Of a stretch of DNA of 64,000 nucleotides, positions 1,528-37,233 are shown one piece after another (the stretch's first letter is position 1; each line of letters begins with the position of its first letter). Below the pieces are notes generated by a model. The model had not been told where the DNA came from and made no database searches. It saw only the letters and a list, made by a program, of their open reading frames with translations. The position numbers were made by a program, and so were the translations under genes. This DNA is from Alphaproteobacteria bacterium (GTDB lineage Bacteria; Pseudomonadota; Alphaproteobacteria; SMXP01). The stretch covers positions 94,838 through 158,837 of the forward strand of contig JANQPV010000037.1 in the NCBI GenBank assembly GCA_028285305.1, in the 5' to 3' direction.

Positions 1528-1578
1528 TGTACTTCCGTTTTCCGTTCGGTTACGAATAAGTGTCTCGCGCGAGGAGGA

Positions 1579-2379: not shown

Positions 2380-2402
2380 GCTCTCCTCCGGTCTTAGCGA
2401 CG

Positions 2403-3539: not shown

Positions 3540-3571
3540 GGTCTTTCCTTCTCTGAATCGATCAGACGGCC

Positions 3572-5566: not shown

Positions 5567-5580
5567 GCCGTCCACTTCCC

Positions 5581-6396: not shown

Positions 6397-6426
6397 TACT
6401 TCATTCCCCCCCGATAGACCAGTCCA

Positions 6427-8049: not shown

Positions 8050-9833
8050 GCCACTTTCTCTGCAATATCTTTGGGAACGGATATAGGGTGATCAAGAAGG
8101 ATTTGCGCATAGGCTTTGCCTTGCGGATCGTTTCTTAGGCTGGCAACACCGCCCCCGCCGAGGGCCTCATGCAACAGGAAATTGATCGCCTTGGGCCCCG
8201 GCATATAAAAGCGTTCCAAGTCTCCCTCAAGGAAGTGGGAGAACCGATCTTTCACAGCATCTTCCGACAGCGACGCCCAAATATAGGGGAGATAAGCTGC
8301 GTCTCGCGCGATAATTCCGATATTGGCCTTGTTGCCTTTGTCCCCACTGCGGCCCCACGCCAACTTCACAAGAGGAACGTCAACTTCACCCTGAACCGGT
8401 TGTGGAGCCTCTGGCCGCTTGATCACTTTCGGATCAAAACTTGTGCCAAGCGCTTCTTGAAATGTGATCTTCTTACCATCGATATCAATCTCAATGGGCA
8501 CACGCGCGCGTGGCAGAAGAAAAGAGAACAGACGAATCATGGGAGACGGTTTCGCCCGGCTTCCGGCAAAACCAGACAAACCAGGAGGCGTCGCAAGGGC
8601 CAGCCCGGTCGCTTCTCTCAACAAGAGAGATATGCCCTTGTCCGATTCATGTTTCGCCGCCAGCTTTAACACCACCTCTCGCGGCTCGCTCGATCTGGAG
8701 TGGTCTCCGTATTGACTGCCTCCGCCGATCACTTCCACGCTGGTCTCCGTGTAGTCCGGCTGGTTCATGGCCCGCAAGGTCTCTCGCGCCCTGGTGATCG
8801 CTGCATCGGCCATGGTCTTCGCTTTTTTGTCCGCATCAAGACCGATAAAACTCATATAGGTCCCTCCGCGAAATCCATCTGCATAGGTCGCGCAAACCTT
8901 GTAGGTGTCTGGCGGTCCATACCCGATCGCATTGGAAACTTTCACCCGGTTCGCACCTGCGTCTTCGATCTTGACCTGGGAGAAATCGCAAACAACGTCG
9001 GGCAGAAAATAGGCCTGAGGGTCACCAATTTCATAGAGCATCTGCTCGGAAACCGTCCCGACATTTACGGCACCACCGGTATCGTCCGGCTTGGTACATA
9101 CAAACGTTCCGTCATCGGACACTTCCGCGATAGGATAGCCAATTGTCGCGAGGGTCTCAGCGACCGTATGCCAGTCCGTAAAGTTTCCCCCCGTCGCTTG
9201 CGGTCCGCATTCCAGAATATGACCAGCGAGACTGCCTTGAGCCAACCTATTCCAATCATCCGCCCGCCAGCCAAACTCATGAATACACGCCGCCAACGTT
9301 ACCGCGCTGTCCACAACCCGGCCCGTGACAACGATATCCGCACCGGCCGCCAAGGCTCGGGCGATTGGAAACGCACCTAGATAGGCATTCATACTGGCGA
9401 GAATTGCCGGGTCCGGAAACGTCTCACCCGAGAACATTTCCTTTATGCCCTCGCTCCCGAACTCGTCTTTTCGCGGCATCAGATCATCACCCGTAACGAC
9501 CGCGACCGTCAGATTGAGGTTTTGCTCAGCGACGAGCGCTCTGATCGCCGCACCGCATGCCTCCGGATTAACCCCGCCCGCGTTCGAGAGTATCCGAACG
9601 CCTTTTTGAGCAATCTCTTGGAGATTGGGTTTCATCACCGCGGTCACAAAGTCGGTGGCGTATCCCGCATCGGGATTTTTTGCCTTCGCGCGCGCCATGA
9701 TAGACATCGTGATTTCCGCCAAATAGTCGTACACGATGTAATCGACATTCGCGGAACGGAGAAACTGCGGCGTCGCCATGGCCGACTCGCCCCAAAATCC
9801 GCTGGCGCCGCCAATCGAAATCGTCTTTGTCAT
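8046..9833 (-). CDS. acyclic terpene utilisation AtuA family protein (DUF1446)
   Basis: 595-aa protein with N-terminal MTKTISIGGASGFWGESAMATPQFL...YIVYDYLAEITMSIMA typical of AtuA/DUF1446. A strong RBS GGAGGTGAGGAAG lies upstream. It is first in an operon with the carboxylase subunits. Confidence 0.75.
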   Translation of the reverse strand: MTKTISIGGASGFWGESAMATPQFLRSANVDYIVYDYLAEITMSIMARAKAKNPDAGYATDFVTAVMKPNLQEIAQKGVRILSNAGGVNPEACGAAIRALVAEQNLNLTVAVVTGDDLMPRKDEFGSEGIKEMFSGETFPDPAILASMNAYLGAFPIARALAAGADIVVTGRVVDSAVTLAACIHEFGWRADDWNRLAQGSLAGHILECGPQATGGNFTDWHTVAETLATIGYPIAEVSDDGTFVCTKPDDTGGAVNVGTVSEQMLYEIGDPQAYFLPDVVCDFSQVKIEDAGANRVKVSNAIGYGPPDTYKVCATYADGFRGGTYMSFIGLDADKKAKTMADAAITRARETLRAMNQPDYTETSVEVIGGGSQYGDHSRSSEPREVVLKLAAKHESDKGISLLLREATGLALATPPGLSGFAGSRAKPSPMIRLFSFLLPRARVPIEIDIDGKKITFQEALGTSFDPKVIKRPEAPQPVQGEVDVPLVKLAWGRSGDKGNKANIGIIARDAAYLPYIWASLSEDAVKDRFSHFLEGDLERFYMPGPKAINFLLHEALGGGGVASLRNDPQGKAYAQILLDHPISVPKDIAEKVA

Positions 9834-9880
9834 ATCTTCTTCCTCACCTCCGATTTATAGCCACTCAATCAAAACAACGG

Positions 9881-10768
9881 CTACAAGTGCAGTTTGCCTT
9901 CAGCGACGATGACGGCTTCGCCCCCAATATGAGCTGAAGCGAGAGATCCGTCCTGGACATCCATTTCGAGCGTAATGACAGACGGGCGCTCCATTTCAAA
10001 TCCCTGTTCAAGAGCGACCGTGTGGGAACCGTTCTGCAGAGTTTCAAATTTCATAACCACGCCTGCAAACCCGGCCGCGGCCGATCCGGTCGCTGGATCT
10101 TCCGGAACGCCGGCCCTCGGGGCAAACATACGCGTGTGATAGTTCTTCTTCGGATCATCCGTTTCGGGACAATACACGTAGACGCCGACCAACTGATCGG
10201 AACCGAAAGCCTCATCCCAATGGCCCAGATCAGGACTTGCTTCATTAATGGCCTCTCTGCTTTTGACCGGGACATAGGCAAACGCCACTCCCGCTGAAAA
10301 GTAGCTGGGAGCATGCGCGTCAAATCCTATATCGTCCGTGGACAACCCAAGCGCTCGTGCCGCCGCACCGGAATTGGGCCCAACGCCAACTTCTTCTGGA
10401 ACTTGCGGCACTCGAAAGCGCGCAGAGGCCGATAATGCGCTTTTGGTGGAAACTTCGCAGGGCACCAATCCCACATTTTCATGAAGAACCACTCGCTCGC
10501 CTGCCCCAGCCTTGAGCGAAAGCCAGCAAGCCGCGCCCACGGTCGGGTGACCGGCAAAGGGCATTTCATAGGTCGGGGTAAAGATTCGGATACGCCCCGT
10601 ACTATCTTCTCTCTCCCGCGCAAGGACGAATACCGTTTCCGAAAGATTGAATTCCCGCGCGATCTTTTGCATCGTTTCCGAACTCAGCTCATCCGCATGC
10701 GGCACAATGGCCAGAGGATTCCCCTCCAACGGCGTATCCGTGAAGACGTCAAGTACGGCATAATCCAT
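9881..10768 (-). CDS. PhzF family isomerase (phenazine biosynthesis PhzF-like)
   Basis: MDYAVLDVFTDTPLEGNPLAIV... is a PhzF/DAP-epimerase-fold signature. The likely start is Met32 of the 326-aa ORF. Confidence 0.7.
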   Translation of the reverse strand: MDYAVLDVFTDTPLEGNPLAIVPHADELSSETMQKIAREFNLSETVFVLAREREDSTGRIRIFTPTYEMPFAGHPTVGAACWLSLKAGAGERVVLHENVGLVPCEVSTKSALSASARFRVPQVPEEVGVGPNSGAAARALGLSTDDIGFDAHAPSYFSAGVAFAYVPVKSREAINEASPDLGHWDEAFGSDQLVGVYVYCPETDDPKKNYHTRMFAPRAGVPEDPATGSAAAGFAGVVMKFETLQNGSHTVALEQGFEMERPSVITLEMDVQDGSLASAHIGGEAVIVAEGKLHL

Positions 10769-10797
10769 GCGGGCAGCCTCTCCAAACTGCGTGGTTC

Positions 10798-11490
10798 TTG
10801 ACAGATAGTATCTCTTCCGTATTATATTTACAACCCGACCGGGCGGGTTTTTTGAGAACATTTAGGATCGCCGATGTGACCGTAACCGACGCAGAACCCC
10901 GCAAACAACAAGTGCGCAGCGCAAAGTCTCAGGAAAAGATCCTCAAGGCCACGCTCGCGTGTTTGGCGGATCACGGGTATGCGGAAACCTCCCTTAACCG
11001 CGTGGTGGAGATGGCGGGCCTCTCCAAAGGCGCGCTGAAACATCACTTCCCATCCAAAGAAGATCTGATCGTTGAAACCGTGAACTATCTCCTTCACCGC
11101 ACCGAGGTCGCGTTTGAGCTTCACAAAGAGAAATGGGCCAAAACGAAAAGTCCTGTGGGCGCCTATGTGGCATTCCTTTGGCAGAAGTTGATCAACACAA
11201 AACCCTACTTCGCGCTCATGGAAATCCTAAATGCGGCGCGCACGGACCCTGCCCTCGCCGAGCGCATCTCGTTTGCTCTGCAGACATGGAGTGACCAGCG
11301 CGTACGCAACGCGGACTTGTTCCAGTCGAGCAAGGGCGATGAGGACGTGGCGCTCCTCACCACCATGACGATTTGTCTGATGCGCGGTCTATTGGTGCAG
11401 AAACAGTTTTCGAATGACCCAAAGGAGCAACAAACAATCATCGAGCGCTGGGTGGAACTGATCGCGCCCTCGATGACGTTGCGAGAGTAG
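10798..11490 (+). CDS. TetR/AcrR family transcriptional regulator (AtuR-like position)
   Basis: HTH region KILKATLACLADHGYAETSLNRVVEMAGLSKGALKHHF. The ORF-track start is a TTG; the true start is more likely the in-frame GTG near 10876. The gene is divergent from the Atu-like operon, as atuR is in Pseudomonas. Confidence 0.8.
   Translation: MTDSISSVLYLQPDRAGFLRTFRIADVTVTDAEPRKQQVRSAKSQEKILKATLACLADHGYAETSLNRVVEMAGLSKGALKHHFPSKEDLIVETVNYLLHRTEVAFELHKEKWAKTKSPVGAYVAFLWQKLINTKPYFALMEILNAARTDPALAERISFALQTWSDQRVRNADLFQSSKGDEDVALLTTMTICLMRGLLVQKQFSNDPKEQQTIIERWVELIAPSMTLRE
10803..10813. promoter_or_regulatory. perfect 5-1-5 inverted repeat AGATAgTATCT in the divergent TetR / PhzF-AtuA intergenic region (candidate TetR operator)
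   Basis: The palindrome is read directly from the sequence. It lies in the roughly 100 bp AT-rich gap between the divergently transcribed TetR gene and the catabolic operon. Confidence 0.35.
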
Positions 11491-11607
11491 ACCAGACAGT
11501 CATCGCGAGGCCACATCGTGGCCGGCGCGAACCAGGGGCCGCCAAGTCTGATAGCGTTGCCTGGATTGCTTCGACGCGCACAGCGCAGCTCGCAATGACG
11601 CCTCCAA

Positions 11608-12882
11608 TCAATGCATCTTAAAGCGGATCGGAACGGACTTTGGTCCGCACACAAAATTTGCCTGAACCCGCTGCGGCGCACCGCTGAGTTCGATCTCATC
11701 TAGACGCGGCAACAGTTCTTCCCAGAAGATCCGCATCTCCATTTTGGCGAGATGCTGTCCAAGACAAACATGCGCGCCATAGCCAAAGGCCACATGCTTG
11801 TTGGAAGGACGCTCGACGGAAAAGCGGAACGGATCGTCAAATACCTCTTCGTCCCGGTTGCCGGAAGAATAGCACAGCATCAAGCGATCGCCTTGTGAGA
11901 CCTTCTCGCCGCGCAATTCCGTATCCGCCGTGGCAAAGCGCATGAAGTGCTTCACCGGGGTCGTCCAACGAATAGACTCGTCAACATAATTCGGAATAAG
12001 GTCCAGATTTTCTTTCAGCTTACGGAACTCATCCGGGTTTTCGCACAAAGCCCAAAGTCCGCCCGCCGTGGAACCGGACGTGGTGTCATGTCCTGCCGTT
12101 GCCACGATCGTATAATAGCCGATGGCTTCAAAGTCACCCAAACGCTCCCCATCGATTTCACCGTTCGCAATCACAGTGGCGACATCGTCTTTCGGGTTTT
12201 CCCGGCGATCCTTGGTCATCGCATTAAAGTATTCGGTGAACTCAGCCATCGTCCCCACAAGTTGATTGAACCGTTCTTCCGGCGTCAGCTCGGCCTTGCC
12301 CACCCGGCTGTTGTCCGGATCTTCAGGTCCGAAGAGCTCTTGAGTGAGTTGGAGCATCGTGGGCTCGTCTTCTTCCGGAACACCCAGAATCTTCATGATC
12401 ACGTGCAACGGATAGAGAAACGCCACATCCTTCGCGAAATCGCATTCCGTTCCGAGGCTCGCCATGTGGTCGACAAATCCTCTTGCGATGACCCGGATAT
12501 CATCTTCCAGCTTGCGCAGGTTCGGCGGCATAAACCAATTTTGCGTCAGCATACGGTGTTTCATGTGATCGGGATTGTCCATCTGGACAAGAGACCGTAC
12601 CAGATGAGGGCCGCCGACCATCTTGTGAACGAACTCTTCCCCTTCAATCGTATTGATTGGGTTCGAATGATCGCCCGCGTGAAAGAGTTCATTGTCCTTT
12701 TCCACCGCAAGGATGTCGGCATGTTTGGTCACCGCCCAGAACGGATGGAACCCGTCAACCTTAGCAACCGCAAGGGGCATTTCCCGGCGTAGGAACGAGA
12801 ACGTGTCCTGCAGGCGGTCTTCATCCGCATACGCCTTAGGGTCTACAAGATCGAATGCTTTATCTGAGGGAATGATCTGCAA
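11608..12882 (-). CDS. cytochrome P450 monooxygenase
   Basis: Heme-binding loop FGYGAHVCLGQHLA, EXXR, and an I-helix region. 424 aa. Confidence 0.9.
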   Translation of the reverse strand: MQIIPSDKAFDLVDPKAYADEDRLQDTFSFLRREMPLAVAKVDGFHPFWAVTKHADILAVEKDNELFHAGDHSNPINTIEGEEFVHKMVGGPHLVRSLVQMDNPDHMKHRMLTQNWFMPPNLRKLEDDIRVIARGFVDHMASLGTECDFAKDVAFLYPLHVIMKILGVPEEDEPTMLQLTQELFGPEDPDNSRVGKAELTPEERFNQLVGTMAEFTEYFNAMTKDRRENPKDDVATVIANGEIDGERLGDFEAIGYYTIVATAGHDTTSGSTAGGLWALCENPDEFRKLKENLDLIPNYVDESIRWTTPVKHFMRFATADTELRGEKVSQGDRLMLCYSSGNRDEEVFDDPFRFSVERPSNKHVAFGYGAHVCLGQHLAKMEMRIFWEELLPRLDEIELSGAPQRVQANFVCGPKSVPIRFKMH

Positions 12883-12912
12883 TGTACTGTATCCGTTTAG
12901 AGTTCGTTCTGC

Positions 12913-13710
12913 TTACTTGCCAACATAGTTGGGTTTGCGTTTCTCCATGAACGCTTTGGGTCCCTCGATCGCATCCTGCGTTCGGAAAACTGGTCCTGAG
13001 ATCTTGTTTTCGAGCTTCAGTGCCTCTTGCTCCGGCTTGCCGAGGCATTCCTTTACGGACTGGCGTATCGCCTTCACGGCAAGAGGTCCGTTGCCGGCGA
13101 TCTTTTCGGCGATCTCCATGGCCTTGCCCATCACATCGTCGGTGACGTAGTTGAGAAAGCCCATCTCCAAAGCATCACTTGCTGAGATAAGGTCACCTGT
13201 CAAAAGCAGTTCCATCGCCTTGGCGTAGGGAATTTGCACCGGCAAACGAACGGTGGACCCGCCTGCGGGGAAAAGAGCCCATTTCACCTCTTGCACGCCG
13301 AGCTTCGCGTCTGGGTGCGCCACACGTATATCCGTTCCCTGAACGATCTCCATACCGCCGGCAATCGCATGCCCGTTGATTGCGGCAATGACCGGCTTTT
13401 CAACGTCGAAATTTCGAAGGAGCGCCCGGCTCGTAAGCCCGGGATCAGCAGCCACCTTTTCATCCCATTCATTCTCGGGCTTGCGCGTGCCGGACACCAT
13501 GGGGATCAGTTGCGCCAGATCGGCTCCCGCGCAGAAGGCTTTCCCGTTGCCGGTCAGCACCACGACTCGCACATCATCATCGTCCCGGGCGTTTTGGAAC
13601 CCATCGGCCAATCGAACGGCCACTTCAGGATTTATCGCATTCCGGGCATCCGGGCGATTCAGAGTGATTGTCGCAATATGATTGGCGACTTCATAAGTCA
13701 CGAGAGCCAT
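12913..13710 (-). CDS. enoyl-CoA hydratase/isomerase family protein
   Basis: Crotonase fold: ITLNRPDARNAINPEV, FCAGADL. 265 aa. Confidence 0.85.
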   Translation of the reverse strand: MALVTYEVANHIATITLNRPDARNAINPEVAVRLADGFQNARDDDDVRVVVLTGNGKAFCAGADLAQLIPMVSGTRKPENEWDEKVAADPGLTSRALLRNFDVEKPVIAAINGHAIAGGMEIVQGTDIRVAHPDAKLGVQEVKWALFPAGGSTVRLPVQIPYAKAMELLLTGDLISASDALEMGFLNYVTDDVMGKAMEIAEKIAGNGPLAVKAIRQSVKECLGKPEQEALKLENKISGPVFRTQDAIEGPKAFMEKRKPNYVGK

Positions 13711-22508: not shown

Positions 22509-23122
22509 CCAACCGGTTCCAGCGCCTTCTGAAGCCCTGGGCGCTCCATCAAACGCTTCCGATAGGCTTTCAGGTTCTCCTGTTCAAGGAGCTTCAGATT
22601 ACCGGCAGAGAAAATCGCATGGCCGATCATGATATCGGCCGCGGAAAAAGGCCCGCCCAACAAGAAATCATTGTCACCCAGTTGCGCGCTCACGCGGGCC
22701 AAGAGCGGCAGCGCATTGGCTTTTGCATAGTCCGCCACTTGCGGCAAACGCTCTTCTTCTGGCCGCCAGTAGCTATTGATCGCATAATCCGCAACAGGAC
22801 TAAGGAGTGTCCCTTCTGCAAAATGAATCCAACTGAGATACTCCGGCCATCCAGCCTCTCCCGGCCGCGGCGCGAACTTACCTTCTTCATCATATGTATA
22901 AAGAATATAGTCTACGATGGCAGATGATTCAAAAACCCTTACGCCATTATCTTCGATTGCCGGCACCCGCCCAAATGGATGCACGCGCTCGAATTCGCTC
23001 GCGCCCAATGCCGGATCGTCAAACCCGGACAACACCTTCAGCTCATGCGGAACGCCAAGTTCTTCCAGGAGCCAACGGATGCGGACAGAGCGTGTGAGAT
23101 GGATATGATAAAGAACAAGCAT
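22505..23122 (-). CDS. glutathione S-transferase
   Basis: Thioredoxin-like N-terminal domain (LVLYHIHLTRSVRIRWLLEELGVPHE) and a C-terminal helical GST domain. It is first in a three-gene coupled operon. Confidence 0.8.
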   Translation of the reverse strand: MLVLYHIHLTRSVRIRWLLEELGVPHELKVLSGFDDPALGASEFERVHPFGRVPAIEDNGVRVFESSAIVDYILYTYDEEGKFAPRPGEAGWPEYLSWIHFAEGTLLSPVADYAINSYWRPEEERLPQVADYAKANALPLLARVSAQLGDNDFLLGGPFSAADIMIGHAIFSAGNLKLLEQENLKAYRKRLMERPGLQKALEPVG

Positions 23123-24023
23123 GACAAGCTCCCGATACTGGATCGAATTACGTTATACCGGTTCCCGAGGTTCACGAGGCGCATTGAATTCGAGAGTGCG
23201 CCCGGCGGCTCATAGCCAGGAAACAGCATATCTTGAGTTGGGCAAGTCTTGTTCTTTGAGACAAAGTCCAAGTCCCGCAACCCAGGCACATTTACTCAAG
23301 GCTTAGGCAAAACAAACAGGGACGCCTTCGTCTGTCTTAAGTGATGGGCTGCACAGGGCATCACTGCGCGGAAATCTGCGGAAAATCATTAGGCCTTTGT
23401 CTGCTGCACAGCCTGCACCATTCTGGAGGGGAAAGGCCGTTTTCAACGCGAAATAGATATGAATGAACCCGAATCCGCGACCGAATGTCATAAGCACCTT
23501 CCCCGCCAACACCCAGAAAGCGGAATCGAATGAAGACTTTTTAGGGGTGGAATCGTGTTACGCCCTATCGCTACTCGCTAGCCGTTGAGAACTACAGTAA
23601 CTCGCTTTACTGGAGCGAAAGGCTGACGGATTGAATTCTGTCTTGTACGATGCTTACCGATTGTGGCCGCACCCGGATCACCGACTACTTTCCACCGGAG
23701 AGCCTTATCCAGATCGATATCGATAACCCAGTGAAGCCGTCGAGATTATTGGAGATGCAATCGCGTGAGACCCACCAAATCTTTTGTGCGCCGATTCCGG
23801 TCTTTGCTGGTTTCAGTAAAACTCGAACTCAGGTGGCTATCAGCTTCAACCCATAACGGGCTTTGCCGCCACGGCGACACAATTACCGAACCGGCATCGG
23901 CGTCCGCCTTTGAGGAGCACCCAACAAACACAAAATCAGGGAACGATACGGTTGGGTGAAGCCGCACAAGCAGTCCGAGGGCACCCCTGTCTGCGCCAGA
24001 CCGACTGCGCATAAGAGAGCCTC

Positions 24024-25676
24024 TTAAAGGTTCCCTTTTCTCGCCTCCGCGGCAATGAACGTGCACGCTCGAGCCGTCACGGCCATTTCCGTAAAGGTGG
24101 GTTTCTGCCAGCCGATACTCGGCCAGCAAGCCCCGTCTGTCACGAAAAGATTGGGACAGCCCCAAACTTGATTGTTTGAGTTGAGGACGGACTCACTGGG
24201 TGAGGCCCCCATCCGGGCGCCTCCCACCTCATGCAAGAAAGATCCGGGCACAGAGAAGTCCATATTCTCCTCGAACGTGCGCACGTTCTTGCCCACCACG
24301 GGCATGTGGAACATGTCGGAAAGACGATGAACTTTGGCTCCGGCCGCATCAAGCAACTCTTCCATCGTCTCGCCCATATCAGCAACCATAGCTGCCTCAT
24401 TCTCTCCCCACGAACAATCGATGTGGGGCGCCGGAATACCCCACGCGTCTTTCACCTCCGGATCCAACTTAACTTGATTTCGGTACTCCGGAAGAACTTC
24501 CCCATGACCAAAGATCATACCGATGGACCCCGGGCCCACTTTTCGGAGGAACGGAGGAACGCCGTTAAGCCTCTGGACACCGAACATCAAGCAATAATCT
24601 CGCAAGAAGTTCCGCTTTCGGTTCTTACGGTTTCGCATATTGAGAACAAACAAACCGCCATCCCCGACGAATTCATAAACGTCTTTGGACGGCTTGATTT
24701 GAGGAAGCAGAAACCATTTTGCCGAAACCAAGTGATCCATCAGGTAGTGGCCCAGCGTCCCGGACTCGTCCTTTATCCCGCCTTGCTGGAACTCTTCTGT
24801 CGAATGAAGCAGAAGGCGGACCGATTCGATAGCCGAGGCACAGAGCACCACGACCTTAGCTTGCACTTCATGATAGGTCTTCTTGGTTCGATGGTAGTAC
24901 CCAACACCTGTGGATTTGCCGGTTTCACGATCGAACGTCACATGGCTGACAACAGAATCCGGCCAAATCTCAGTATTTCCAGTTGCCAGAGCGACTTTCA
25001 GGGACCCGGACAGGCTAGACTGAGGCGCCCATGGCTCCTGCATGCTCGGCTTGAACGCCTGGGTGGTTTTGATCCCACGGGCGGATATGACACTCTGCTC
25101 CGGCCACACGCGAGAGGCCACCTCAGTCAGATGCTCTTCACCCGGACTTCTTGGCGATGCAGGCAAGGTGTCCCCGTCGGGGACGAAAGGCAATCCATCC
25201 TGATTTCCCCGGATGTCATACAATTTCTCGATCATGGAGTAATGTGGCGCTAGATCTTCATAGGCGATCGGCCAATCAATCCCGAAACCGTCATTGGACG
25301 CTGCTTTAAACTCAAAATTGGACATCCGCGGCGTAACCGCCCCCCACCATAGGCTGCGCCCACCGACATGACGCCCACGCACAAAATGGAACGGCCGGTC
25401 TTCAGGCGTCGTATACGGATTGTCCCGTTCATCGACATACAGATTGGGGTCGTACTCAACATAGGTTGAGTGAATACGCTGTACTTTGTGCCGTCCGGTA
25501 AAGCCCGCAAAGATTCGAGATGCATGTTGAGCAATGAATGAACGATAGGTATGTTTGGGATTGAGCATGGGCCCGGCTTCGAGCACCGCAACCTTCAACC
25601 CGGCTTCGGCGAGCACTTTGGCGGCCATACCCCCATTCGGGCCCGATCCGACCACAATCACATCAATTTCGTCCAC
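24024..25676 (-). CDS. GMC family FAD-dependent oxidoreductase
   Basis: FAD motif DVIVVGSGPNGGMAAKVLAEAGLKVAVLEAG and a C-terminal GMC region. 550 aa. Confidence 0.85.
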   Translation of the reverse strand: MDEIDVIVVGSGPNGGMAAKVLAEAGLKVAVLEAGPMLNPKHTYRSFIAQHASRIFAGFTGRHKVQRIHSTYVEYDPNLYVDERDNPYTTPEDRPFHFVRGRHVGGRSLWWGAVTPRMSNFEFKAASNDGFGIDWPIAYEDLAPHYSMIEKLYDIRGNQDGLPFVPDGDTLPASPRSPGEEHLTEVASRVWPEQSVISARGIKTTQAFKPSMQEPWAPQSSLSGSLKVALATGNTEIWPDSVVSHVTFDRETGKSTGVGYYHRTKKTYHEVQAKVVVLCASAIESVRLLLHSTEEFQQGGIKDESGTLGHYLMDHLVSAKWFLLPQIKPSKDVYEFVGDGGLFVLNMRNRKNRKRNFLRDYCLMFGVQRLNGVPPFLRKVGPGSIGMIFGHGEVLPEYRNQVKLDPEVKDAWGIPAPHIDCSWGENEAAMVADMGETMEELLDAAGAKVHRLSDMFHMPVVGKNVRTFEENMDFSVPGSFLHEVGGARMGASPSESVLNSNNQVWGCPNLFVTDGACWPSIGWQKPTFTEMAVTARACTFIAAEARKGNL

Positions 25677-25708
25677 CCGAACTCCCCAACCTCAAGTTTT
25701 GACGCGTG

Positions 25709-26482
25709 CTAGTTCGCGCCTACCCAAAAAGGGTCTTGCTCCATATTTTGTGCAACGCGATCAAGTACCTGCTCAACCGTTAAAAAAGTGTACCCATCTT
25801 CTTTCAGGGCTCGAATGATATTCCTCGCCGCTCGAACCGTTCCGCTGCGATCGGTCCCTGGCACTTGGTCATAACCATCATGCAAAATAATGATCGATCC
25901 AGGCTTGGTGTGCTTGAGAACGATTTCAGTAATCCGGTCGGGATCCTGGGTCATCCAATCATCCCCAAAAACGAGGCCCGCCACATGTGGCTCTCCACGC
26001 TCTCGAAGAAGAGACGTCGTGTGCAGGCCAACCATAAGTCTAGGCGCCCGATATCGTATGGGGCCCTCTACACCCAGTTCTCGCAGTTGGCGTTCCGTTC
26101 GCTCATACCACGTGACCACTTTTTTGGAACCCATGAACGCGAGAACTCTCTCATCATAAAAGTGGTTACCAACTTCGTGGCCGTCATCGATGATACGGCG
26201 GACCGAATCCGGATAGGCCTCAGCATACTTACCAACAACAAAAAAAGTCGCCTTAACGCCTTCCTCTTTCAAAACTTCCAATATTTGCTCTGTATACGGT
26301 GGGTTCGGACCGTCATCAATGGTGAGAGCAACCACCTTGTCTTCTCCGGGAATAGAGAATATGGACGTACCCATTGGCCTCGGCGCGTAAAGCCAAAGAA
26401 GAACCAAAGCGCCCACGATGAGCGCAACCGCAAGAGACATCGCAATCATAGAGAATGCTGAGGACATCAAGTGGTGTGCCAA
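25709..26482 (-). CDS. polysaccharide deacetylase family protein (NodB homology domain), membrane-anchored
   Basis: N-terminal TM helix, then the NodB motifs TIDDGP and HEVGNH. Confidence 0.8.
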   Translation of the reverse strand: MAHHLMSSAFSMIAMSLAVALIVGALVLLWLYAPRPMGTSIFSIPGEDKVVALTIDDGPNPPYTEQILEVLKEEGVKATFFVVGKYAEAYPDSVRRIIDDGHEVGNHFYDERVLAFMGSKKVVTWYERTERQLRELGVEGPIRYRAPRLMVGLHTTSLLRERGEPHVAGLVFGDDWMTQDPDRITEIVLKHTKPGSIIILHDGYDQVPGTDRSGTVRAARNIIRALKEDGYTFLTVEQVLDRVAQNMEQDPFWVGAN

Positions 26483-26756
26483 TTCTGTTCTTTTTCTGAA
26501 ACATTTGTTTCATATTTTGGGCTGGCACGATACCTGAATCTATGCACGAGAAAAGCCCAAAGGTGGACTTTTTGCGGCAAATCGATGGTCTTGTCTCTAA
26601 CCATGGTTAAGGAACGTTTGGTATAAGGATTTTGGATGAATGCGGAAGTCTCAGAACGGCACATCCAAAAACTCGTCGACCTTCCCCATTCATCATTATA
26701 CCCACGGCAGTGGAACGCAAATTGTTCATTTCACGCACGGGTGACGGTCAGTTGCA

Positions 26757-28046
26757 ATGAAAATCGGCATCGCAGTAATTGGCACACGCGGGGATCTCCA
26801 ACCCTATATCGTTTTGGCGCGCGCACTGAACCAAGCGGGCTATCGTGCGCGCGTTTTCGGCCCACCGAACTTCGGCGACTTAGCCGCATCATTGGGGGTT
26901 GAATACGAAGGATTTGGGGTAAACTGGCAAGACGCGTTCTCCCATCCCGATACCCAGCAATTGCTCGAAGGCGATCTCTTCTTTTTACCGAAAATTTGGG
27001 ACTCAATTGTCCTAAAGATGCTTGATAGCGGTCTCGAAGCTTGCAAGAGGGCCGCCGAGTGGGGCGATGCACTTCTTTATCACGCGACCACAGTTGGCGG
27101 ACCCGACATTGCGGAAGCCACCGGCAAGCCGGTCATCTGCACAGCATTGCAGCCTGTGACAACGCCGACCGGCTTACATCCACTCCCGAGTGTACCTCTT
27201 TTCCAAATGCAATTGGCCCAAAACCTAGGACCAATTGTCAATCGCGCAACCTTCTTGTCTTGGCGAGCCCAACGGTTGCTCTTCTACAATCGCATTGGGC
27301 GGTGGCGCAAAAGAGAGCTGGGGCTGTCTTCCAGTGGACCGATGTTTCCTCGAGTTGCGCAAGGCTCAATGGGATTGCTGCCGCGATTGCACCTGGTTTC
27401 ACCACAAATCTCGGCAATTCCTGATGACACCGAAACCCATCTCTACACCACAGGCTATGCCTTCCTGGACTCGAACGAAGAAGAGACGTTAGACCCTCAG
27501 CTGGAAGATTTTCTTGAATCCGGCCCCACGCCAATTTATGTCGGATTCGGAGGCGCTTCCCTGAACGATACGGAACGATTCACAAACAGAGTCATGGAGG
27601 GCCTTCGCTCAACAGGCGTACGAGCCGTGGTCGCCACAGGCTGGGGCGGGCTGCAAGAAGCTGAGACCGACGACAACTTCTTGTTCGTAAATTATGTGCC
27701 CTTCGACAAACTGTTCCCCCGGGTGAAAGCCATCGTTCACCATTGCAGCGCCGGCACATTTGGACGCATTCTTTATTTTGGGAAACCGATGCTAAACGTG
27801 CCGTTCTCGTTTGATATGCCATGGTTTGGCGCACGAGGATATGAGATGGGCGTTGCGCCAAAACCAATACTCGCACGCCGCCTGAAAACCGACGTCTTTG
27901 CCCGGCGTCTCAATGACTTGCTAAGCAATTCCAGGTATAGCCAGACGGCCGAGGAAATCGGCCAAAAAATGCGTCTTGAAGATGGAAATGCCACAGCCGT
28001 AAAGCGGATTACAACCATTCTCGACGCCAAATCAAAAAATGGATGA
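26757..28046 (+). CDS. GT1 family glycosyltransferase (MGT / UDP-glycosyltransferase, CrtX / sterol-glucosyltransferase-like)
   Basis: N-terminal GTRGDLQPYIVLARAL and a C-terminal UDP-sugar-binding region HHCSAGTF...G.P typical of GT1. Confidence 0.75.
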   Translation: MKIGIAVIGTRGDLQPYIVLARALNQAGYRARVFGPPNFGDLAASLGVEYEGFGVNWQDAFSHPDTQQLLEGDLFFLPKIWDSIVLKMLDSGLEACKRAAEWGDALLYHATTVGGPDIAEATGKPVICTALQPVTTPTGLHPLPSVPLFQMQLAQNLGPIVNRATFLSWRAQRLLFYNRIGRWRKRELGLSSSGPMFPRVAQGSMGLLPRLHLVSPQISAIPDDTETHLYTTGYAFLDSNEEETLDPQLEDFLESGPTPIYVGFGGASLNDTERFTNRVMEGLRSTGVRAVVATGWGGLQEAETDDNFLFVNYVPFDKLFPRVKAIVHHCSAGTFGRILYFGKPMLNVPFSFDMPWFGARGYEMGVAPKPILARRLKTDVFARRLNDLLSNSRYSQTAEEIGQKMRLEDGNATAVKRITTILDAKSKNG

Positions 28047-28117
28047 TGGGCCTCTATTGGTGATCTGCCCGATTTCGCATTCCGTAACTAGAGTTAAGGT
28101 GAATTCTGAGTAGAGAA

Positions 28118-29137
28118 ATGCAATCCGTATTGGTTACAGGCGCAACAGGGTACATAGCAACTCATACCATACTCGCGCTCATCGAAAATGGTTATTCCGT
28201 ACGCGGAACAGTTAGATCCCTGGCCCACGGACAGGATCTCGTTGAGCGGTTGTCAGGCTACGCCGAGAAACCAATCTCGTTCGAACTGGCGGAAGCGGAT
28301 CTGTCGAAAGACGAAGGTTGGAAAGAAGCCATGGATGGCATCGACTATGTCCTCCACTTGGCTTCCCCAGCGCCCCTAATTCTTCCAGACAACGACAATT
28401 TGATTGTCGAACCGGCCCGAGACGGCACAGTTCGCGTGTTAGAGGCAGCCAGAGATTCCATGTCCGTCAAACGTGTCGTCATCACATCATCCGTGACAGC
28501 TATTACCCATGGCTGCGGACCAAAATTGCCCGAAACGTTCAATGAGAGCCATTGGACGGATCCGACGAACCTGACCGATACAACGGCCTATTCGCGTTCC
28601 AAAGTCGTGGCGGAACGCGCAGCCTGGTCGTTCGTTTCCAATTCCAACATAAATTTTGATCTGGTTTGCTTGCATCCCACGCTCGTTCTGGGACCCGTCA
28701 TGGGACCAAAATTTGCTGCTACTTTGAGCTTCGTCAGCAAGCTGATGGCAGGAGAAGTTCCACTCATTCCAAGTGTCGGATATCAAGTTATCGATGTGCG
28801 CGACGCCGCGTTGGCCCATGTTCGCGCGCTGCAAAATGCAGACGCAGGCGGAAACCGGTTCATATTAAGCGGCGAATTCTTATGGATGAAAGACGTCGCT
28901 AACATTTTGCGTTCCTCCTTCGACGATCGATCCTTCCCTCGTTTCTCCGTTCCAAATAGCCTCTTGCATCTTGCCGGGCGCTTTGAGCCTTCCCTCAAAA
29001 ATGTGATGATCGATGTGGGAAGAAGACGAATTGCATCAAGCGAACAAGCGCAAAAGCATTTGGGATGGTGTCCCCGGCCCGCTGAAGAAAGCGTCCTCGA
29101 CTGCGCCCACAGCTTAGTGCGTCACGGCGTCGTTTAA
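28118..29137 (+). CDS. NAD-dependent epimerase/dehydratase family protein (extended SDR; 3-beta-HSD / dihydroflavonol-reductase-like)
   Basis: VLVTGATGYIATHTILAL Rossmann motif, a YSRSK catalytic motif, and a 339-aa extended-SDR architecture. Confidence 0.8.
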   Translation: MQSVLVTGATGYIATHTILALIENGYSVRGTVRSLAHGQDLVERLSGYAEKPISFELAEADLSKDEGWKEAMDGIDYVLHLASPAPLILPDNDNLIVEPARDGTVRVLEAARDSMSVKRVVITSSVTAITHGCGPKLPETFNESHWTDPTNLTDTTAYSRSKVVAERAAWSFVSNSNINFDLVCLHPTLVLGPVMGPKFAATLSFVSKLMAGEVPLIPSVGYQVIDVRDAALAHVRALQNADAGGNRFILSGEFLWMKDVANILRSSFDDRSFPRFSVPNSLLHLAGRFEPSLKNVMIDVGRRRIASSEQAQKHLGWCPRPAEESVLDCAHSLVRHGVV

Positions 29138-29181
29138 CGGCCTCAAATCTCAGCGAAATCTTGCACCAAACAAAAACTTTG

Positions 29182-29207
29182 ATACGCCGATCGCGAGACC
29201 GGCGTAT
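29182..29207. terminator. intrinsic terminator hairpin between convergent genes (ATACGCCG-N10-CGGCGTAT, followed by a T-run on the minus strand)
   Basis: I read a perfect 8-bp stem directly from the sequence. On the minus strand it is followed by TTTTTGTTT, immediately downstream of the stop of the 544-aa gene. Confidence 0.5.
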
Positions 29208-29210
29208 GGT

Positions 29211-30800
29211 TCAACTCAGGGGCGGCTTAGCCGCAGCTTGCCGCTTAAAGAGGCTTTCGGCGCGCCGGATCAAGGAAGCGACGAATCCAACTTTCTTGTC
29301 GCCCCGCATAAGCGGCAATATATCTCTGTTCAGTGTTGACGGCGACAGCACGAGGTTCTGCCCCAGCACAACCAAATGATCCCGCCAGGTAATCCGTTTA
29401 TTCATTGTTTGCGCCAGAAACGGAACAAAGGCCCGCGCCGTTTCCGAAAACGTCAGTGTGGGAAATGCTTTACGCAACTTCGATGCTCGTTGTGTTGCGT
29501 CGGACGTGCCATAAATCGCGGCCAACTCATCGAGAGCCGGCGCCATCCGTTCTGTTAACCACACCGCCCTCTGGTCGTTAGGAATTGGTTCTCGCTCAAC
29601 GTCATCATAGAGTGTGATGAGACCCTCTGCCACGTCTGGTCTGGTTTCGGCGCCGACATTTCCCAGAACCAAGAGGTCATGAAGAGCATAGGCCCGTAAG
29701 ACGCCGTTTCGATCGGATGCTCCGCGCAGACTGAGAAACAATCCGACCTGCGCAGCCGCCAGTTCGGCCTCAATTTCCTTTTCCGTGCGATTGAGCAGGA
29801 CCCGTACCGAGAAAGGATAGCGACACTTCCGATCACGGACAAACTCTTCAAGAGACTCGTAGTCATGTAATTGCCTGAGCGCCGCAAGCTCTTCACCGGT
29901 AATCTCGTAAACGGCTGAGAGAAAGTCGTGCAGTACTTCGAACGGATCATTGTTGGAACCCTCCAAAGCGCTCAAATCGGAAACGAAACCAGCAACCGTC
30001 AAACACGCAGATTTAGGAAGCTCCCCGGTTGCGACGCGTGCCGCAATTCCATCCAACAACTCAAGAAGCCCCAGATAGTTGTCAGGACTGTAAACATCCG
30101 TTCCTTTGTTGCGACGAAAATTCCCAAAGAGAATCATATTGAATGTGTCGGAGGATCGAGCTGCAACCAAAGGCTCTACGCTCTGAGTCCTCTCGATGTT
30201 ACTTGGTATACCAATCACCTTTACGTCACGCGTCGAGGGCGCAACCATCCGCGCGATCGACAAGCCCAGAAACTTCGTTTTGTGAATAGCCTCAAGTTCA
30301 TAAGTCGAGCTTACCGCAATCGATCCGAAGCGCGCGCATGGCAAGAACAAAGCCATGTTAAAAAGCGTCGCAGCCAATCCGGCACGATTTCCTGCTTCAC
30401 TGAACTCATGCACGTAGGTCGCCAAGAGTCGTCGCGTCCCGCCGTGTTCGTGTGTGCCAGCAATAAGCCGCGAAAGTTCCGCGAACATGGACCCAAGTCC
30501 GAAATGGATATCAGGTTGATTGTAAAGAACGATTTGCGCCCGCTGGGTATTGCTGGGACCCATCTGCTCCAACAGTCGAAATAGGCTCTGAGCTTGCTCG
30601 GTCGGAGAGAGGTCAGGACCGATCGCTGTCACATCCAAAACCTTGGCATCCACCCCCATCTCGCATAGGCCTTGGACGACAAGACGCGCAAATGTGTAAA
30701 TGCCGTTTTGGTGCTCTATGCATGAGCAAACTGGAACGACGACCTGAACTTCGCCGGATAGCAGCGACCGGACTCTATCGTCTTGGGGAACAACCAACAT
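29211..30800 (-). CDS. hypothetical protein, glycosyltransferase group-1 (GT4)-like core with C-terminal extension of unknown function
   Basis: The N-terminal half resembles a GT-B Rossmann fold (LVVPQDD...VVVPV, then VKVIGIPSN...FNMILFGNFRRNKGTD, cf. the GT4 motif G.....KG.D.L). About 250 C-terminal residues have no similarity I recognise. The likely start is the ATG at 30800. Confidence 0.4.
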   Translation of the reverse strand: MLVVPQDDRVRSLLSGEVQVVVPVCSCIEHQNGIYTFARLVVQGLCEMGVDAKVLDVTAIGPDLSPTEQAQSLFRLLEQMGPSNTQRAQIVLYNQPDIHFGLGSMFAELSRLIAGTHEHGGTRRLLATYVHEFSEAGNRAGLAATLFNMALFLPCARFGSIAVSSTYELEAIHKTKFLGLSIARMVAPSTRDVKVIGIPSNIERTQSVEPLVAARSSDTFNMILFGNFRRNKGTDVYSPDNYLGLLELLDGIAARVATGELPKSACLTVAGFVSDLSALEGSNNDPFEVLHDFLSAVYEITGEELAALRQLHDYESLEEFVRDRKCRYPFSVRVLLNRTEKEIEAELAAAQVGLFLSLRGASDRNGVLRAYALHDLLVLGNVGAETRPDVAEGLITLYDDVEREPIPNDQRAVWLTERMAPALDELAAIYGTSDATQRASKLRKAFPTLTFSETARAFVPFLAQTMNKRITWRDHLVVLGQNLVLSPSTLNRDILPLMRGDKKVGFVASLIRRAESLFKRQAAAKPPLS

Positions 30801-31157
30801 GATACTCACTTCACTACTGAACGCACAGGCTCTATTCACCCGCACGGGAACCTAATGCAAAGCCAAGAGCTCAACAATTCAAATTCAGAAAAAATTTGTT
30901 AACAAAGAGGTTATCAGTAGATTTGGTGAGCACACTGTAGAAAAACTGTGACAAAACAAACGTCGTTCCGCATGGAGTTAACCAGAGAATGGTTAAGTCA
31001 AGACCAAACCCTATCATTTACCAATTGAACTCACTTATGGCACTAATCTGCACAAGGATATATTGTTACACGCCCGCAGTCGGCCTGGCTTGCCCAGACT
31101 ACTAACATTGGATATTGTACAAGCTGTTTCTCGGACGAATGATGGAAACGGTGACCC

Positions 31158-31961
31158 TTGTACTTTCCAAAAGTACTTCTTAAGCACACTCGCGGCTTTA
31201 CCTGGCTTTTCTTGGCCTTACCTCTATCGTTTGCCACATTGGTTTCGGCGCCAAGCCGCAGTGCAGAACCAGTCCTCGTAGCCGTTGCAACGAACTTCGC
31301 GCAACCATTTGAAGAAATCGCGGCATCGTTCACCAAAGAGACCGGCCACAATGTCCGGATAGCCACAGGATCGTCCGGAAAATTCTATGCTCAAATTGTC
31401 CATGGAGCGCCCTATGATGTTTTTTTGTCAGCTGATAGGGAACGTCCCGCAAGACTGATTGAGCTAAGCCACGCCGTACAAGGATCACGGTTTACCTATG
31501 CGGAAGGGCGACTCGCTCTCTGGAGCAGGAACGCGGCGCAACGCGAAACCTCTTGGCAGGAGATTCTTCGAAAGGGCAGCTTCCGGAAGCTCGCGATGGC
31601 TAATCCCGATGTGGCTCCGTATGGCAAAGCAGCACAGGAAGTCCTCATCGCACTCGGCGTGCACGACCTTCTCCGACCTAAGATTGTCTTAGGGGAGAAT
31701 ATTGGCCAGGCATTCGCAATGGTCGCTACGGGAAACGCAGATTGGGGCCTTGTCGCCACCTCGTCATTTGCCGCCCTCGACAACCCGGATCTAGGGACCA
31801 AATTGCCGATCCCCTCGCAAAAGCACGCACCCATTCGGCAAGATGCGGTTTTGCTGACCCGGAGCGCCGACAACGAGATGGCGGTCGCTTTAATTGCTTT
31901 TTTGAGAAGCGAGACCGCCAAAGCCATCATCCACCGATACGGCTACGGAACCAGTGGGTAA
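31158..31961 (+). CDS. modA: molybdate ABC transporter substrate-binding protein
   Basis: Signal peptide with AXA cleavage (…ATLVSA/PS), then ModA-family sequence (VLVAVATNFAQPFEEIAASF…). It starts with TTG immediately after an in-frame stop. Confidence 0.8.
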   Translation: MYFPKVLLKHTRGFTWLFLALPLSFATLVSAPSRSAEPVLVAVATNFAQPFEEIAASFTKETGHNVRIATGSSGKFYAQIVHGAPYDVFLSADRERPARLIELSHAVQGSRFTYAEGRLALWSRNAAQRETSWQEILRKGSFRKLAMANPDVAPYGKAAQEVLIALGVHDLLRPKIVLGENIGQAFAMVATGNADWGLVATSSFAALDNPDLGTKLPIPSQKHAPIRQDAVLLTRSADNEMAVALIAFLRSETAKAIIHRYGYGTSG

Positions 31962-37156: not shown

Positions 37157-37233
37157 GGGCCTGTAGCTCAGTTGGTTAGAGCCGGCCGCTCATAACGGTC
37201 TGGTCGCTGGTTCGAGTCCAGCCAGGCCCACCA
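37157..37233 (+). tRNA. tRNA with CAT anticodon; features favour tRNA-Ile2 (lysidine, k2CAU) over elongator tRNA-Met
   Basis: I folded a cloverleaf by eye: acceptor GGGCCTG/CAGGCCC, D-arm GTAGCTCAGTTGGTTAGAGC, anticodon loop CT-CAT-AA, T-arm GGTTCGAGTCC, 3' CCA encoded. C4-G69 and C5-G68, and a T-arm/variable region near-identical to E. coli tRNA-Ile2, suggest TilS-substrate identity. Confidence 0.85.

Follow-up and report, generated by a model that had tools for sequence, protein, structure and literature searches.

Organization of the locus

Five contiguous genes, all lying inside 7 kb, were found in the analysed window of 64,000 nucleotides, each where a previous sequence-only reading had placed it, and the family assignments of that reading stand in Pfam, NCBIfam and PDB phmmer searches. 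On the minus strand, a gene for a CE4 (NodB-type) polysaccharide deacetylase (25709–26482) is followed after 32 bp by one for a GMC-family FAD oxidoreductase (24024–25676), and on the plus strand a GT1-family glycosyltransferase gene (26757–28046) is followed after 71 bp by a gene for an extended SDR (28118–29137). The two pairs diverge from a common spacer at 26483–26756. The fifth gene, on the minus strand (29211–30800, with an ORF reaching 30845), encodes an orphan GT-B protein with a GT4-like predicted fold; it is convergent with the GT1-SDR unit, from which 73 bp separate it, and diverges from modA across a second spacer (30801–31157). Directly after its stop codon lies an intrinsic-terminator-like hairpin (29182–29207, minus strand; 11 pairs, then a T-run), the top site of this kind within 23000–31400, which is supportive only, because such sites in the region total no more than the shuffle expectation. 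The light-response genes reported nearby were recovered as well, since the Pfam scan of the window ORFs placed a photolyase and a DPRP cryptochrome-like gene to the left of the locus, together with a GST and two classical SDRs.

Both spacers had been described as AT-rich flanks of the cluster. Their GC content is indeed low (0.445 and 0.431, respectively, against a window mean of 0.547), yet 26483–26756 lies inside the cluster, where the deacetylase and GT1 genes diverge, and neither stretch has any special or island-like character. The two have the lowest GC among spacers longer than 150 bp (others 0.49–0.58) and are similar to short spacers elsewhere (0.40–0.47), which is ordinary because both are divergent promoter regions, the first presumably serving the deacetylase-GMC and GT1-SDR units and the second the orphan gene and modA. 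A simple scan of 26483–26756 found no consensus sigma-70 site; 30801–31157 holds one promoter-like site (31037–31064, plus strand), the repeated sequence GGATAT(A)TTGT(T)ACA at 31056–31070 and 31110–31122, and the palindrome TTTGTTAACAAA at 30895–30906. Rfam gave no match in either spacer or in the 900-bp gap, and a riboswitch in the modA spacer was thereby ruled out.

The locus genes (GC 0.51–0.546, GC3 0.52–0.61) lie within about 1–2 SD of the window genes (0.549 ± 0.022 and 0.61 ± 0.05, respectively), and this comparison yielded no transfer signal. Flanking repeats or element boundaries beyond chance were not detected, no integrase or transposase was seen, and the sole tRNA is at 37157. A horizontally acquired island was ruled out because of the normal composition.

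The deacetylase-GMC and GT1-SDR units

The deacetylase (252–257 aa) matches Polysacc_deac_1 with 90 bits, and the NCBIfam models PdaB, NodB and PgdA with 115–128 bits, each under its cutoff. Its membrane anchoring, suggested earlier, is borne out by one N-terminal hydrophobic segment (KD19 of 2.71 at residues 13–31), predicted to be a transmembrane or signal-anchor helix. Of the CE4 motifs, TIDDG, RAPR, DDW and ILHD can be recognized, whereas motif 2 is HFYDE in place of HxxxH, with Glu where the second His of the metal triad is usual, and it is kept as HxxxD/E in the homologues from L006 and L007.

The GMC protein (550 aa), encoded by the second gene of this unit and devoid of a signal peptide, scores over cutoff with both GMC_oxred_C (82.2 bits) and GMC_oxred_N (30.8 bits), and combines VVGSGPNGG (GxGxxG FAD fold) at residues 8–16 with the GMC C-terminal domain. 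Phmmer against the PDB returned the fructose dehydrogenase large subunit (2e-23), FAD-glucose dehydrogenase (1e-21) and pyranose oxidase (4e-15). Its alignment found no relatives in GTDB genomes and, in metagenomes, a sole match with a 26%-identical protein. Plasmid homologues at 35–37% identity lie in contexts composed of GMC, MFS, DUF6379 and xylose-isomerase-like genes, resembling the type of cluster described for C-glycoside deglycosylation (PMC10646112); it is in these catabolic, C-glycoside-type contexts that the nearest annotated GMC relatives reside.

The GT1 protein (429 aa), a UDP-sugar-dependent GT-B glycosyltransferase by PDB phmmer, GT1 homologues and motifs, falls slightly under cutoff with both Pfam halves (EryCIII-like_C, 30.2 vs 31.7; Glyco_transf_28, 26.1 vs 26.2). 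In the PDB its matches are the yeast sterol 3-beta-glucosyltransferase UGT51 (4e-29) and GtfD (7e-25), those to GtfD, GtfA and GtfB ranging from 1e-19 to 1e-25. The sequence reads GTRGDLQP (GxRGDxQP) in its N-terminal part and HHCSAGT (HHxxAGT) in its C-terminal part, and these two motifs together with the full-length homology place the protein in CAZy GT1. Its 129 homologues carry PF03033, PF06722 and PF00201, the closest, P0015, being 73% identical and all others at most 35%. The top NCBIfam match is the rifamycin-inactivating Rgt, at 84 bits against an 800-bit cutoff.

The SDR (339 aa) matches Epimerase (2e-24) and 3Beta_HSD (4e-16), and its motifs GATGYIA and YSRSK are those of a generic extended SDR. 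The earlier label of a 3-beta-HSD-like extended SDR thus keeps its second half only, as the nearest solved proteins are carbonyl reductases: dihydroflavonol-4-reductase (DFR, 1e-36), cinnamoyl-CoA reductase (CCR, 3e-36) and GRE2 methylglyoxal reductase (2e-32) in PDB phmmer. HpnA (TIGR03466, hopanoid-associated sugar epimerase) is the top NCBIfam match, at 129 bits against a 368-bit cutoff; an assignment to HpnA or 3-beta-HSD was rejected, and we regard the protein as of the DFR/CCR/aldehyde-reductase type.

Do the five genes form one pathway?

The sequence-only reading took the five genes as one toolkit by which a lipid, sterol/hopanoid or carotenoid would be glycosylated and tailored, with the orphan as a second sugar transferase. 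Their contiguity and complementary chemistries (two GT-B transferases, a deacetylase, a sugar oxidase and a reductase) speak for this, and so do the HpnA match of the SDR, weakened by its score far under cutoff, and the sterol glucosyltransferase that is the top solved relative of GT1. However, the SDR is nearer to the DFR/CCR reductases, and none of the Pfam-scanned ORFs of at least 150 aa in the 64-kb window belongs to a carotenoid, hopanoid, sterol or PKS pathway (crt, hpn, shc), so that the proposed acceptor is pure conjecture.

Comparison with the one close syntenic relative in hand, L006 (GCA_041940745.1), separates the orphan from the other four genes. GMC, CE4, GT1 and SDR are 84%, 77%, 74% and 60% identical there, with order and orientation unchanged, while to the right of the SDR gene a 115-aa ModE-like ORF precedes modA and the orphan is absent. 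Thus four of the five genes are kept together in this single relative, and not all members co-occur as they would in a single biosynthetic cluster. The orphan is also convergent with the GT1-SDR unit and followed by a terminator-like hairpin of its own, its closest homologues adjoin PUFA-synthase-like genes rather than GT1, SDR, GMC or CE4, and the GT1 homologues at 30–35% identity lie in unrelated contexts lacking the block partners. We therefore judge a single five-gene cluster unlikely, even though the basic amphipathic tail of the orphan and the neighbours of its homologues would fit a lipid acceptor; the one-pathway reading is weakly supported. As a whole, the earlier observation is partly confirmed and its interpretation partly supported.

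Perhaps the genes are mere neighbours, each encoding an enzyme that acts on its own in stress response, detoxification or catabolism, with the orphan as an unrelated accessory gene. GT1 would then be a xenobiotic- or antibiotic-glycosylating enzyme of the YjiC/MGT/Rgt type, the SDR an aldehyde reductase, the GMC protein a glycoside or sugar oxidase and the CE4 enzyme a cell-wall or chito-oligosaccharide deacetylase. The GST, classical SDR, photolyase and DPRP genes on the left are in line with such roles, as are the Rgt match of GT1 (although far below its cutoff), GRE2 among the best solved relatives of the SDR, the catabolic clusters of the plasmid GMC homologues and the scattered contexts of homologues in general. 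On the other hand, the short gaps inside each pair and their common divergent spacer suggest two operons under joint control, and the block holds together in L006 although both flanks differ, with no GST on the left and the ModE-like gene on the right. It should be kept in mind that common descent by itself would be enough to produce synteny at about 75% nucleotide identity, which is no proof of shared function. Taken together, we see independent neighbours as a rather less than probable arrangement, but one to be taken seriously.

The orphan GT-B protein

The orphan ORF reaches a GTG at 30845 (544 aa); translation probably starts at the ATG at 30800 (529 aa), and the protein as deposited has 482 aa. 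It belongs to an extremely rare family, with 8 matches in 1.84 billion representative proteins. Neither whole-database search revealed other NCBI homologues, a word-indexed database search with a wider alignment added no new members, the alignment found no relatives in GTDB genomes, and the protein is absent from the viral contigs scanned and from plasmids (tblastn). Nothing was retrieved from Pfam or NCBIfam even at E<=10, nor was there a family match in PADLOC or in PDB phmmer/hmmsearch; a role in a defence system was ruled out on the PADLOC result. The single sequence-level match in the PDB, a marginal one (E 0.025), falls on the stretch FGTxRxGKG in SidI, a GT-B effector of Legionella. The accession numbers gave no match in a literature search.

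The suggestion that this protein is GT4-like, against which a model lacking the GT-B fold would have spoken, was followed up with a fold prediction, and the predicted fold is clearly GT-B. The model, built on a 7-sequence alignment (an earlier AF2 run with 4 close sequences reached a pLDDT of 49 and was discarded), has two Rossmann-like beta/alpha/beta domains, at about residues 17–215 and 216–405, with a C-terminal helix crossing back, followed by a basic helical tail (406–529), and the structures that it resembles most are those of genuine GT4 transferases. At the sequence level the orphan, P0002 and P0003 have no match at E<=10 to the Pfam GT4 models PF00534, PF13439, PF13579 and PF13692; sub-threshold matches to these appear only for the distant members P0008 and P0009, and a phmmer search of P0009 against the PDB, meant for transferring the GT4 motif, gave nothing of use.

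After the first strand of the C-terminal domain the orphan reads FGNFRRNKG, a GRxxxxKG-type diphosphate-binding motif that aligns with FGTIRPGKG of SidI, and G226, R229, K232 and G233 are invariant in the 7 family sequences. An invariant H-E-F motif follows strand 4 of the N-terminal domain. The E-x7-E pattern that GT4 enzymes carry between strand 4 and helix 4 of the C-terminal domain is lacking: residues 348–384, spanning C-beta-4 to C-beta-5 in the secondary structure of the predicted model, contain no Glu, the segment 357–375 being SLRGASDRNGVLRAYALHD. In an hhalign comparison of the orphan family with five E. coli GT4s, E281 and E289 of WaaG fall on A361 and A370; at 9% probability this alignment serves as a register check only.

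The absence of E-x7-E could mean that the orphan is inactive as a sugar transferase. It might then be an inactive GT-B scaffold or regulator, or perform another chemistry, as do SenB (C-Se bond formation) and UDP-GlcNAc 2-epimerase. However, even at 20% identity the family does not vary in its diphosphate-binding motif or in several residues of the cleft region, an argument that ligand binding is retained, and the closest folds are those of true GT4 transferases, so we find a function outside glycosyl transfer improbable.

The homologues P0002, P0003 and P0014, 41–47% identical to the orphan, each lie directly upstream of pfaD-like ER and KS-AT-ACP-KR-DH genes, with differing contexts on their own upstream side. 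The three amount to about one observation, because they come from a single metagenome and a single high-GC lineage, their pfa genes being 83–94% identical at the nucleotide level. A literature search for pfa clusters with glycosyltransferases found no direct precedent. One could imagine an unclassified GT-B family, marked by the missing E-x7-E, the H-E-F motif and a membrane-docking basic tail, that glycosylates unusual long-chain lipids, such as PUFA-synthase-like products, or modifies their head groups in another way, and that together with GT1, SDR, CE4 and GMC makes a novel amino- or keto-sugar glycolipid at the present locus; we hold this to be decidedly unlikely.

A proposed model of three transcription units

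With moderate confidence, we favour a region of three separate transcription units, in which a four-gene block acts on a glycosylated small molecule and the orphan is an independent, divergent GT-B protein. The first unit, deacetylase-GMC on the minus strand, and the second, GT1-SDR on the plus strand, would be driven from their common divergent promoter spacer. Judging from family chemistry, a glycosylated small molecule is the most plausible substrate of the block: GT1 would add a hexose taken from a UDP-sugar, the CE4 enzyme, anchored in the membrane, would remove an acetyl group, the GMC flavoenzyme would oxidize a sugar hydroxyl and the SDR would interconvert carbonyl and hydroxyl groups, whether for biosynthetic tailoring or for turnover and detoxification. 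The third unit would be the orphan, a monocistronic and lineage-sporadic gene for a highly divergent protein of GT4-like fold. We infer a peripheral-membrane, nucleotide-sugar-dependent transferase with a lipid-like acceptor. The tail (pI 10.9, net charge +3/+4, hydrophobic moment 0.54, hence amphipathic) may dock the protein to the membrane, K232 and R229 probably hold the donor diphosphate, and H131/E132 of the N-terminal domain may contact the acceptor.

Overall, we regard the orphan as a new GT-B variant of modest interest, set among locus genes that are ordinary members of their families. If active, it would represent a new GT-B sequence family working without the canonical GT4 acidic motif, and a small, clean test case for alternative donor binding. 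Moreover, the PUFA-synthase-like genes beside its homologues in another lineage are a hint of glycosylated "secondary lipids", a little-explored class of products. In practical terms, the locus mainly teaches caution, in that being contiguous is not enough to make five genes one pathway.

Comparison with known systems

Orphan homologues stand directly upstream of pfaD-like ER, KS-AT-ACP-KR and DH genes, as found in myxobacterial-type PUFA synthase (pfa1–pfa3) clusters, while the 64-kb window, unlike such clusters, holds no pfa gene.

The GMC protein shares the FAD-binding N-terminus and GMC C-domain with the glycoside 3-oxidase/pyranose oxidase/FAD sugar-dehydrogenase branch (CarA, PsG3Ox 7QF8, FDH large subunit 7W2J). 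Identity is low, and unlike in the CarA-type and FDH systems no CarB/CarC-like gene, Gluconate_2-dh3 small subunit or cytochrome subunit is encoded next to it. In C-glycoside deglycosylation clusters, MFS, DUF6379 and xylose-isomerase-like genes are found, as they are beside the plasmid GMC homologues (PMC10646112). The GT1 protein joins the sterol 3-beta-glucosyltransferase/YjiC/MGT/Gtf group by its full-length homology and its GxRGDxQP and HHxxAGT motifs, whereas the donor motif, usually D-Q in this group, reads D-M.

The orphan aligns with the GT-B domain of SidI (8JHU) over only about 55 residues, and it shows no sign of the role of that protein, a large effector that targets eukaryotes. 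Finally, the retaining GT4 enzymes PimA (2GEJ), BshA (6N1X), WlaC/PglH (6EJI), HepE (4XSO) and WaaG are only 10–13% identical to the orphan, which, unlike them, has neither a Glu at the E-x7-E position nor a GG loop after strand 1, and which adds to the GT4 architecture a helical insertion at 277–322, between C-beta-2 and C-beta-3, and the basic tail of about 100 residues.

Gene content and transcription units

ORF listing and profile searches confirmed the five genes that the sequence-only reading had placed in this region. The first, a GMC flavoenzyme gene (24024-25676, minus strand, 550 aa), matches GMC_oxred_C with 82 bits and GMC_oxred_N with 31 bits. Its product carries the FAD motif VVGSGPNGG at the N-terminus and has no signal peptide; among solved proteins it is most similar to membrane fructose and glucose dehydrogenases (catalytic subunits) and next to pyranose/glycoside oxidases. 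The adjacent CE4/NodB deacetylase (25709-26482, minus strand, 252-257 aa; Polysacc_deac_1, 90 bits) has a single hydrophobic anchor at its N-terminus. On the plus strand, the GT1 transferase (26757-28046, 429 aa) matches the yeast sterol 3-beta-glucosyltransferase (phmmer, 4e-29) and GtfA, GtfB and GtfD (1e-19 to 1e-25), with both of its Pfam halves falling 0.1-1.5 bits short of the cutoffs. It is followed by an extended SDR (28118-29137, plus strand, 339 aa; Epimerase 2e-24, 3Beta_HSD 4e-16), which reaches 129 bits with the HpnA model against a cutoff of 368 bits and which among solved proteins comes closest to carbonyl reductases of the dihydroflavonol, cinnamoyl-CoA and GRE2 types (~1e-36). 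The fifth ORF (29211-30845, minus strand, 544 aa) has no family assignment and is called here the orphan.

Gene spacing and orientation divide the region into three units: CE4-GMC, with a gap of 32 bp on the minus strand; GT1-SDR, with a gap of 71 bp on the plus strand; and the orphan gene, which is solitary and convergent with the SDR gene. Directly 3' of the orphan stop codon lies a hairpin of 11 pairs followed by a T-run (29207-29182).

The cluster had been described as flanked by AT-rich DNA. Low GC was indeed found in the divergent CE4/GT1 spacer (26483-26756, GC 0.445) and in the divergent orphan/modA spacer (30801-31157, GC 0.431), but the former is internal to the region and is no flank. 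Both have the lowest GC among window spacers longer than 150 bp (others 0.49-0.58); short spacers elsewhere in the window go down to 0.40-0.47. The five genes themselves show GC of 0.51-0.546 and GC3 of 0.52-0.61, against 0.549 +/- 0.022 and 0.61 +/- 0.05 for window genes. Composition is normal, boundary repeats and mobility genes are absent, and no Rfam element matched in the spacers or in a 900-bp gap to the left of the five genes. We read no island signal here and take the two AT-rich spacers to be ordinary promoter regions.

The orphan/modA spacer also contains a 12-bp perfect palindrome, TTTGTTAACAAA (30895-30906), which is at about chance level for 8 kb, and a repeat GGATAT(A)TTGT(T)ACA upstream of modA (31056-31070 and 31110-31122); these may be operator sites. 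The interval from a GST gene to the stop codon of the GMC gene (23123-24023) comprises about 900 bp without a convincing ORF or Rfam match, which is unusually long for a bacterial chromosome. An 88-aa ORF called within it (23746-24012) is odd in composition and has no conserved counterpart in L006, a contig from a related genome.

A conserved four-gene block

Homologues of the GT1 protein numbered 129. Those with 30-35% identity have unrelated gene neighbourhoods (in one, a CE4 gene lies three genes away), and the GT1 match P0015 (73% identical) led to L006 (JBGTRO010000084.1, GCA_041940745.1), the only syntenic relative. There, GMC (84% identical), CE4 (77%), GT1 (74%) and SDR (60%) keep the same order and orientation. 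The left flank differs, L006 having no GST gene. Downstream of the L006 SDR gene, a 115-aa ModE-N-terminal-like ORF (6707-7054) precedes modA and the orphan is absent; in our window the orphan gene holds the slot before modA (29211-31157), and no modE-like sequence occurs anywhere in the 64 kb. Thus, the four-gene block persists and the orphan fills a variable slot. Of the proposed five-gene cluster, the four-gene part reappears in this relative and the membership of the orphan does not; a single pathway served by all five genes is, in our view, unlikely.

Two further features of L006 may be recorded: its GT1 orthologue (4249-5522) is broken into ORFs of 85 and 337 aa, by a frameshift/pseudogene or an assembly error, and the contig has a run of N at ~7251-7260.

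In the window CE4, metal-binding motif 2 (residues 105-111) reads HFYDE in place of HxxxH. The His-to-Asp/Glu change is common to L006 (HLYDD) and to the CE4 of another locus, L007 (HGYTD; 34% identical), which points to a subfamily whose metal site is altered.

An extraordinarily rare protein with a GT-B fold

The orphan probably starts at ATG 30800, giving 529 aa (the numbering used here), because its homologues begin aligning at about residue 17 and a Shine-Dalgarno-like GTGAG lies 5-9 nt upstream of this codon. The deposited/Logan call starts at M48 and gives 482 aa; the stretch in question is 30657-30800 of the window. It is probably N-terminally truncated, as it would drop strand 1 and helix 1 (residues 18-47) of the model described below, in addition to part of the region aligned by the homologues.

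No Pfam, NCBIfam or PADLOC model matched the orphan, even at E<=10, and neither did any PDB sequence. Relatives are extraordinarily scarce: one search found 3 clusters in 5.8 billion, HMMER run exhaustively on 1.84 billion representatives found 8 proteins at E<=1e-3, and neither plasmids nor viral contigs nor the GTDB representative genomes gave a match.

AF2 modelling with four close sequences reached a pLDDT of 49; after adding the homologues P0014, P0006, P0008 and P0009, it rose to 81.3 (pTM 0.83). The model shows an N-terminal Rossmann domain (~residues 17-215), a C-terminal Rossmann domain (~216-405) whose residues 277-322 form a helical insertion, and an extra helical part (406-529) in which confidence drops beyond residue 470. 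The unrecognisable C-terminal portion, formerly put at roughly 250 aa, thus shrinks to residues 406-529. One distant, low-GC-looking member, P0008 (839 aa), combines an N-terminal GT-B domain with ~450 extra residues behind it.

Ten residues are invariant in seven family members, down to 20% identity: E132 and F133 (part of an H-E-F motif that follows strand 4 of the N-domain), E168, G226, R229, K232, G233, P329, G360 and H374. The orphan counterpart of the GT4 diphosphate-binding motif GRxxxxKG is FGNFRRNKG, and conservation of this R/K-G motif makes it most likely that the protein still binds an NDP-sugar. The same stretch is the family profile's sole sequence-level match in PDB, to the Legionella GT-B effector SidI (E 0.025), which hints at a link with SidI-like proteins. 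In contrast, at the site of the E-x7-E motif, which GT4 enzymes have between strand 4 and helix 4 of the C-domain, SLRGASDRNGVLRAYALHD is found in the orphan and close homologues alike, and no glutamate occurs anywhere in residues 348-384; a low-confidence hhalign alignment with five E. coli GT4s places WaaG E281 and E289 opposite A361 and A370. A non-canonical or inactive GT-B protein, an explanation that concerns the orphan only and overlaps with the other readings, nevertheless seems doubtful to us, given the retained diphosphate motif.

The tail (406-529) is basic (pI 10.9), and the helix at its end is cationic and amphipathic (net charge +3/+4, hydrophobic moment 0.54). Each of the nearest family members, P0002, P0003 and P0014 (41-47% identical), is encoded directly upstream of pfaD-like enoyl reductase, KS-AT-ACP-KR and DH genes, in the style of myxobacterial PUFA synthases (L001, 518-12068; L002, 10001-17589; L004, 10001-16781), with a PPTase gene intervening in one locus and differing upstream neighbours. 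Since all three contigs derive from a single metagenome and a single lineage of 73-76% GC, with pfa genes 83-94% identical in nucleotides, the linkage amounts to about a single observation; the orphan homologues diverge faster (75-85%). Together, the basic amphipathic tail and this linkage in another lineage suggest a membrane-associated role for the orphan, with a lipid-like acceptor. A step further would be to see in it a new GT family that, with its neighbouring genes, produces glycosylated secondary lipids; we consider this quite improbable.

Elsewhere, a distant member, P0009, lies between serA and PHB genes, and a 4-kb contig (L005, 129-3929) carries two tandem paralogues (541 and 540 aa, ~31% identical to the orphan) around a PDDEXK_3 nuclease-like gene.

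Possible roles and relation to known systems

A Pfam scan of ORFs of 150 aa or more in the 64-kb window turned up no genes of carotenoid, hopanoid, sterol or PKS type. Elsewhere the window holds Atu/Liu-type, P450, photolyase/cryptochrome, modABC, pckA, dnaG-rpoD, carAB-greA and ELM1-like genes, a set that probably belongs to an alphaproteobacterium. Outside the five-gene region, positions 337-13710 resemble an acyclic-terpene/leucine utilisation (Atu/Liu) cluster, with acyl-CoA dehydrogenase, biotin carboxylase, carboxyltransferase, AtuA and enoyl-CoA hydratases, and with PhzF-like and P450 genes alongside.

Plasmid homologues of the GMC protein (35-37% identical) adjoin MFS, DUF6379 and xylose-isomerase-like genes, a layout that we take to be the CarA/CarB/CarC-type arrangement for C-glycoside deglycosylation. 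In two loci (L020 and L021, plasmids NZ_CP115898.1 and NZ_CP017077.1; 35-36% identical) a ROK regulator also lies alongside. Glycoside 3-oxidase genes have been reported to cluster with CarB and CarC homologues (PMC10646112). A catabolic reading of the window GMC is no less legitimate than a biosynthetic one, because its homologues sit in such deglycosylation-type layouts; unlike these, the window gene has no CarB/CarC-type partners beside it. That the five genes are merely neighbours, with detoxification or catabolic roles, is a rather unlikely alternative, against which the persistence of the block in L006 speaks.

We give about an even chance to three units in which the four-gene block plausibly acts on one glycosylated small molecule and the orphan, a divergent GT-B protein, is an independent accessory. 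Perhaps the SDR would install or remove a hydroxyl on the small molecule, with the GT1 adding a hexose, the CE4 enzyme taking off an acetyl group on the membrane side and the GMC enzyme oxidising a sugar hydroxyl. Set against known systems, the GMC, CE4, GT1 and SDR genes belong to large families and are unremarkable members of them, and the orphan is a rare, motif-atypical and new sequence-level variant of the very well known GT-B fold.
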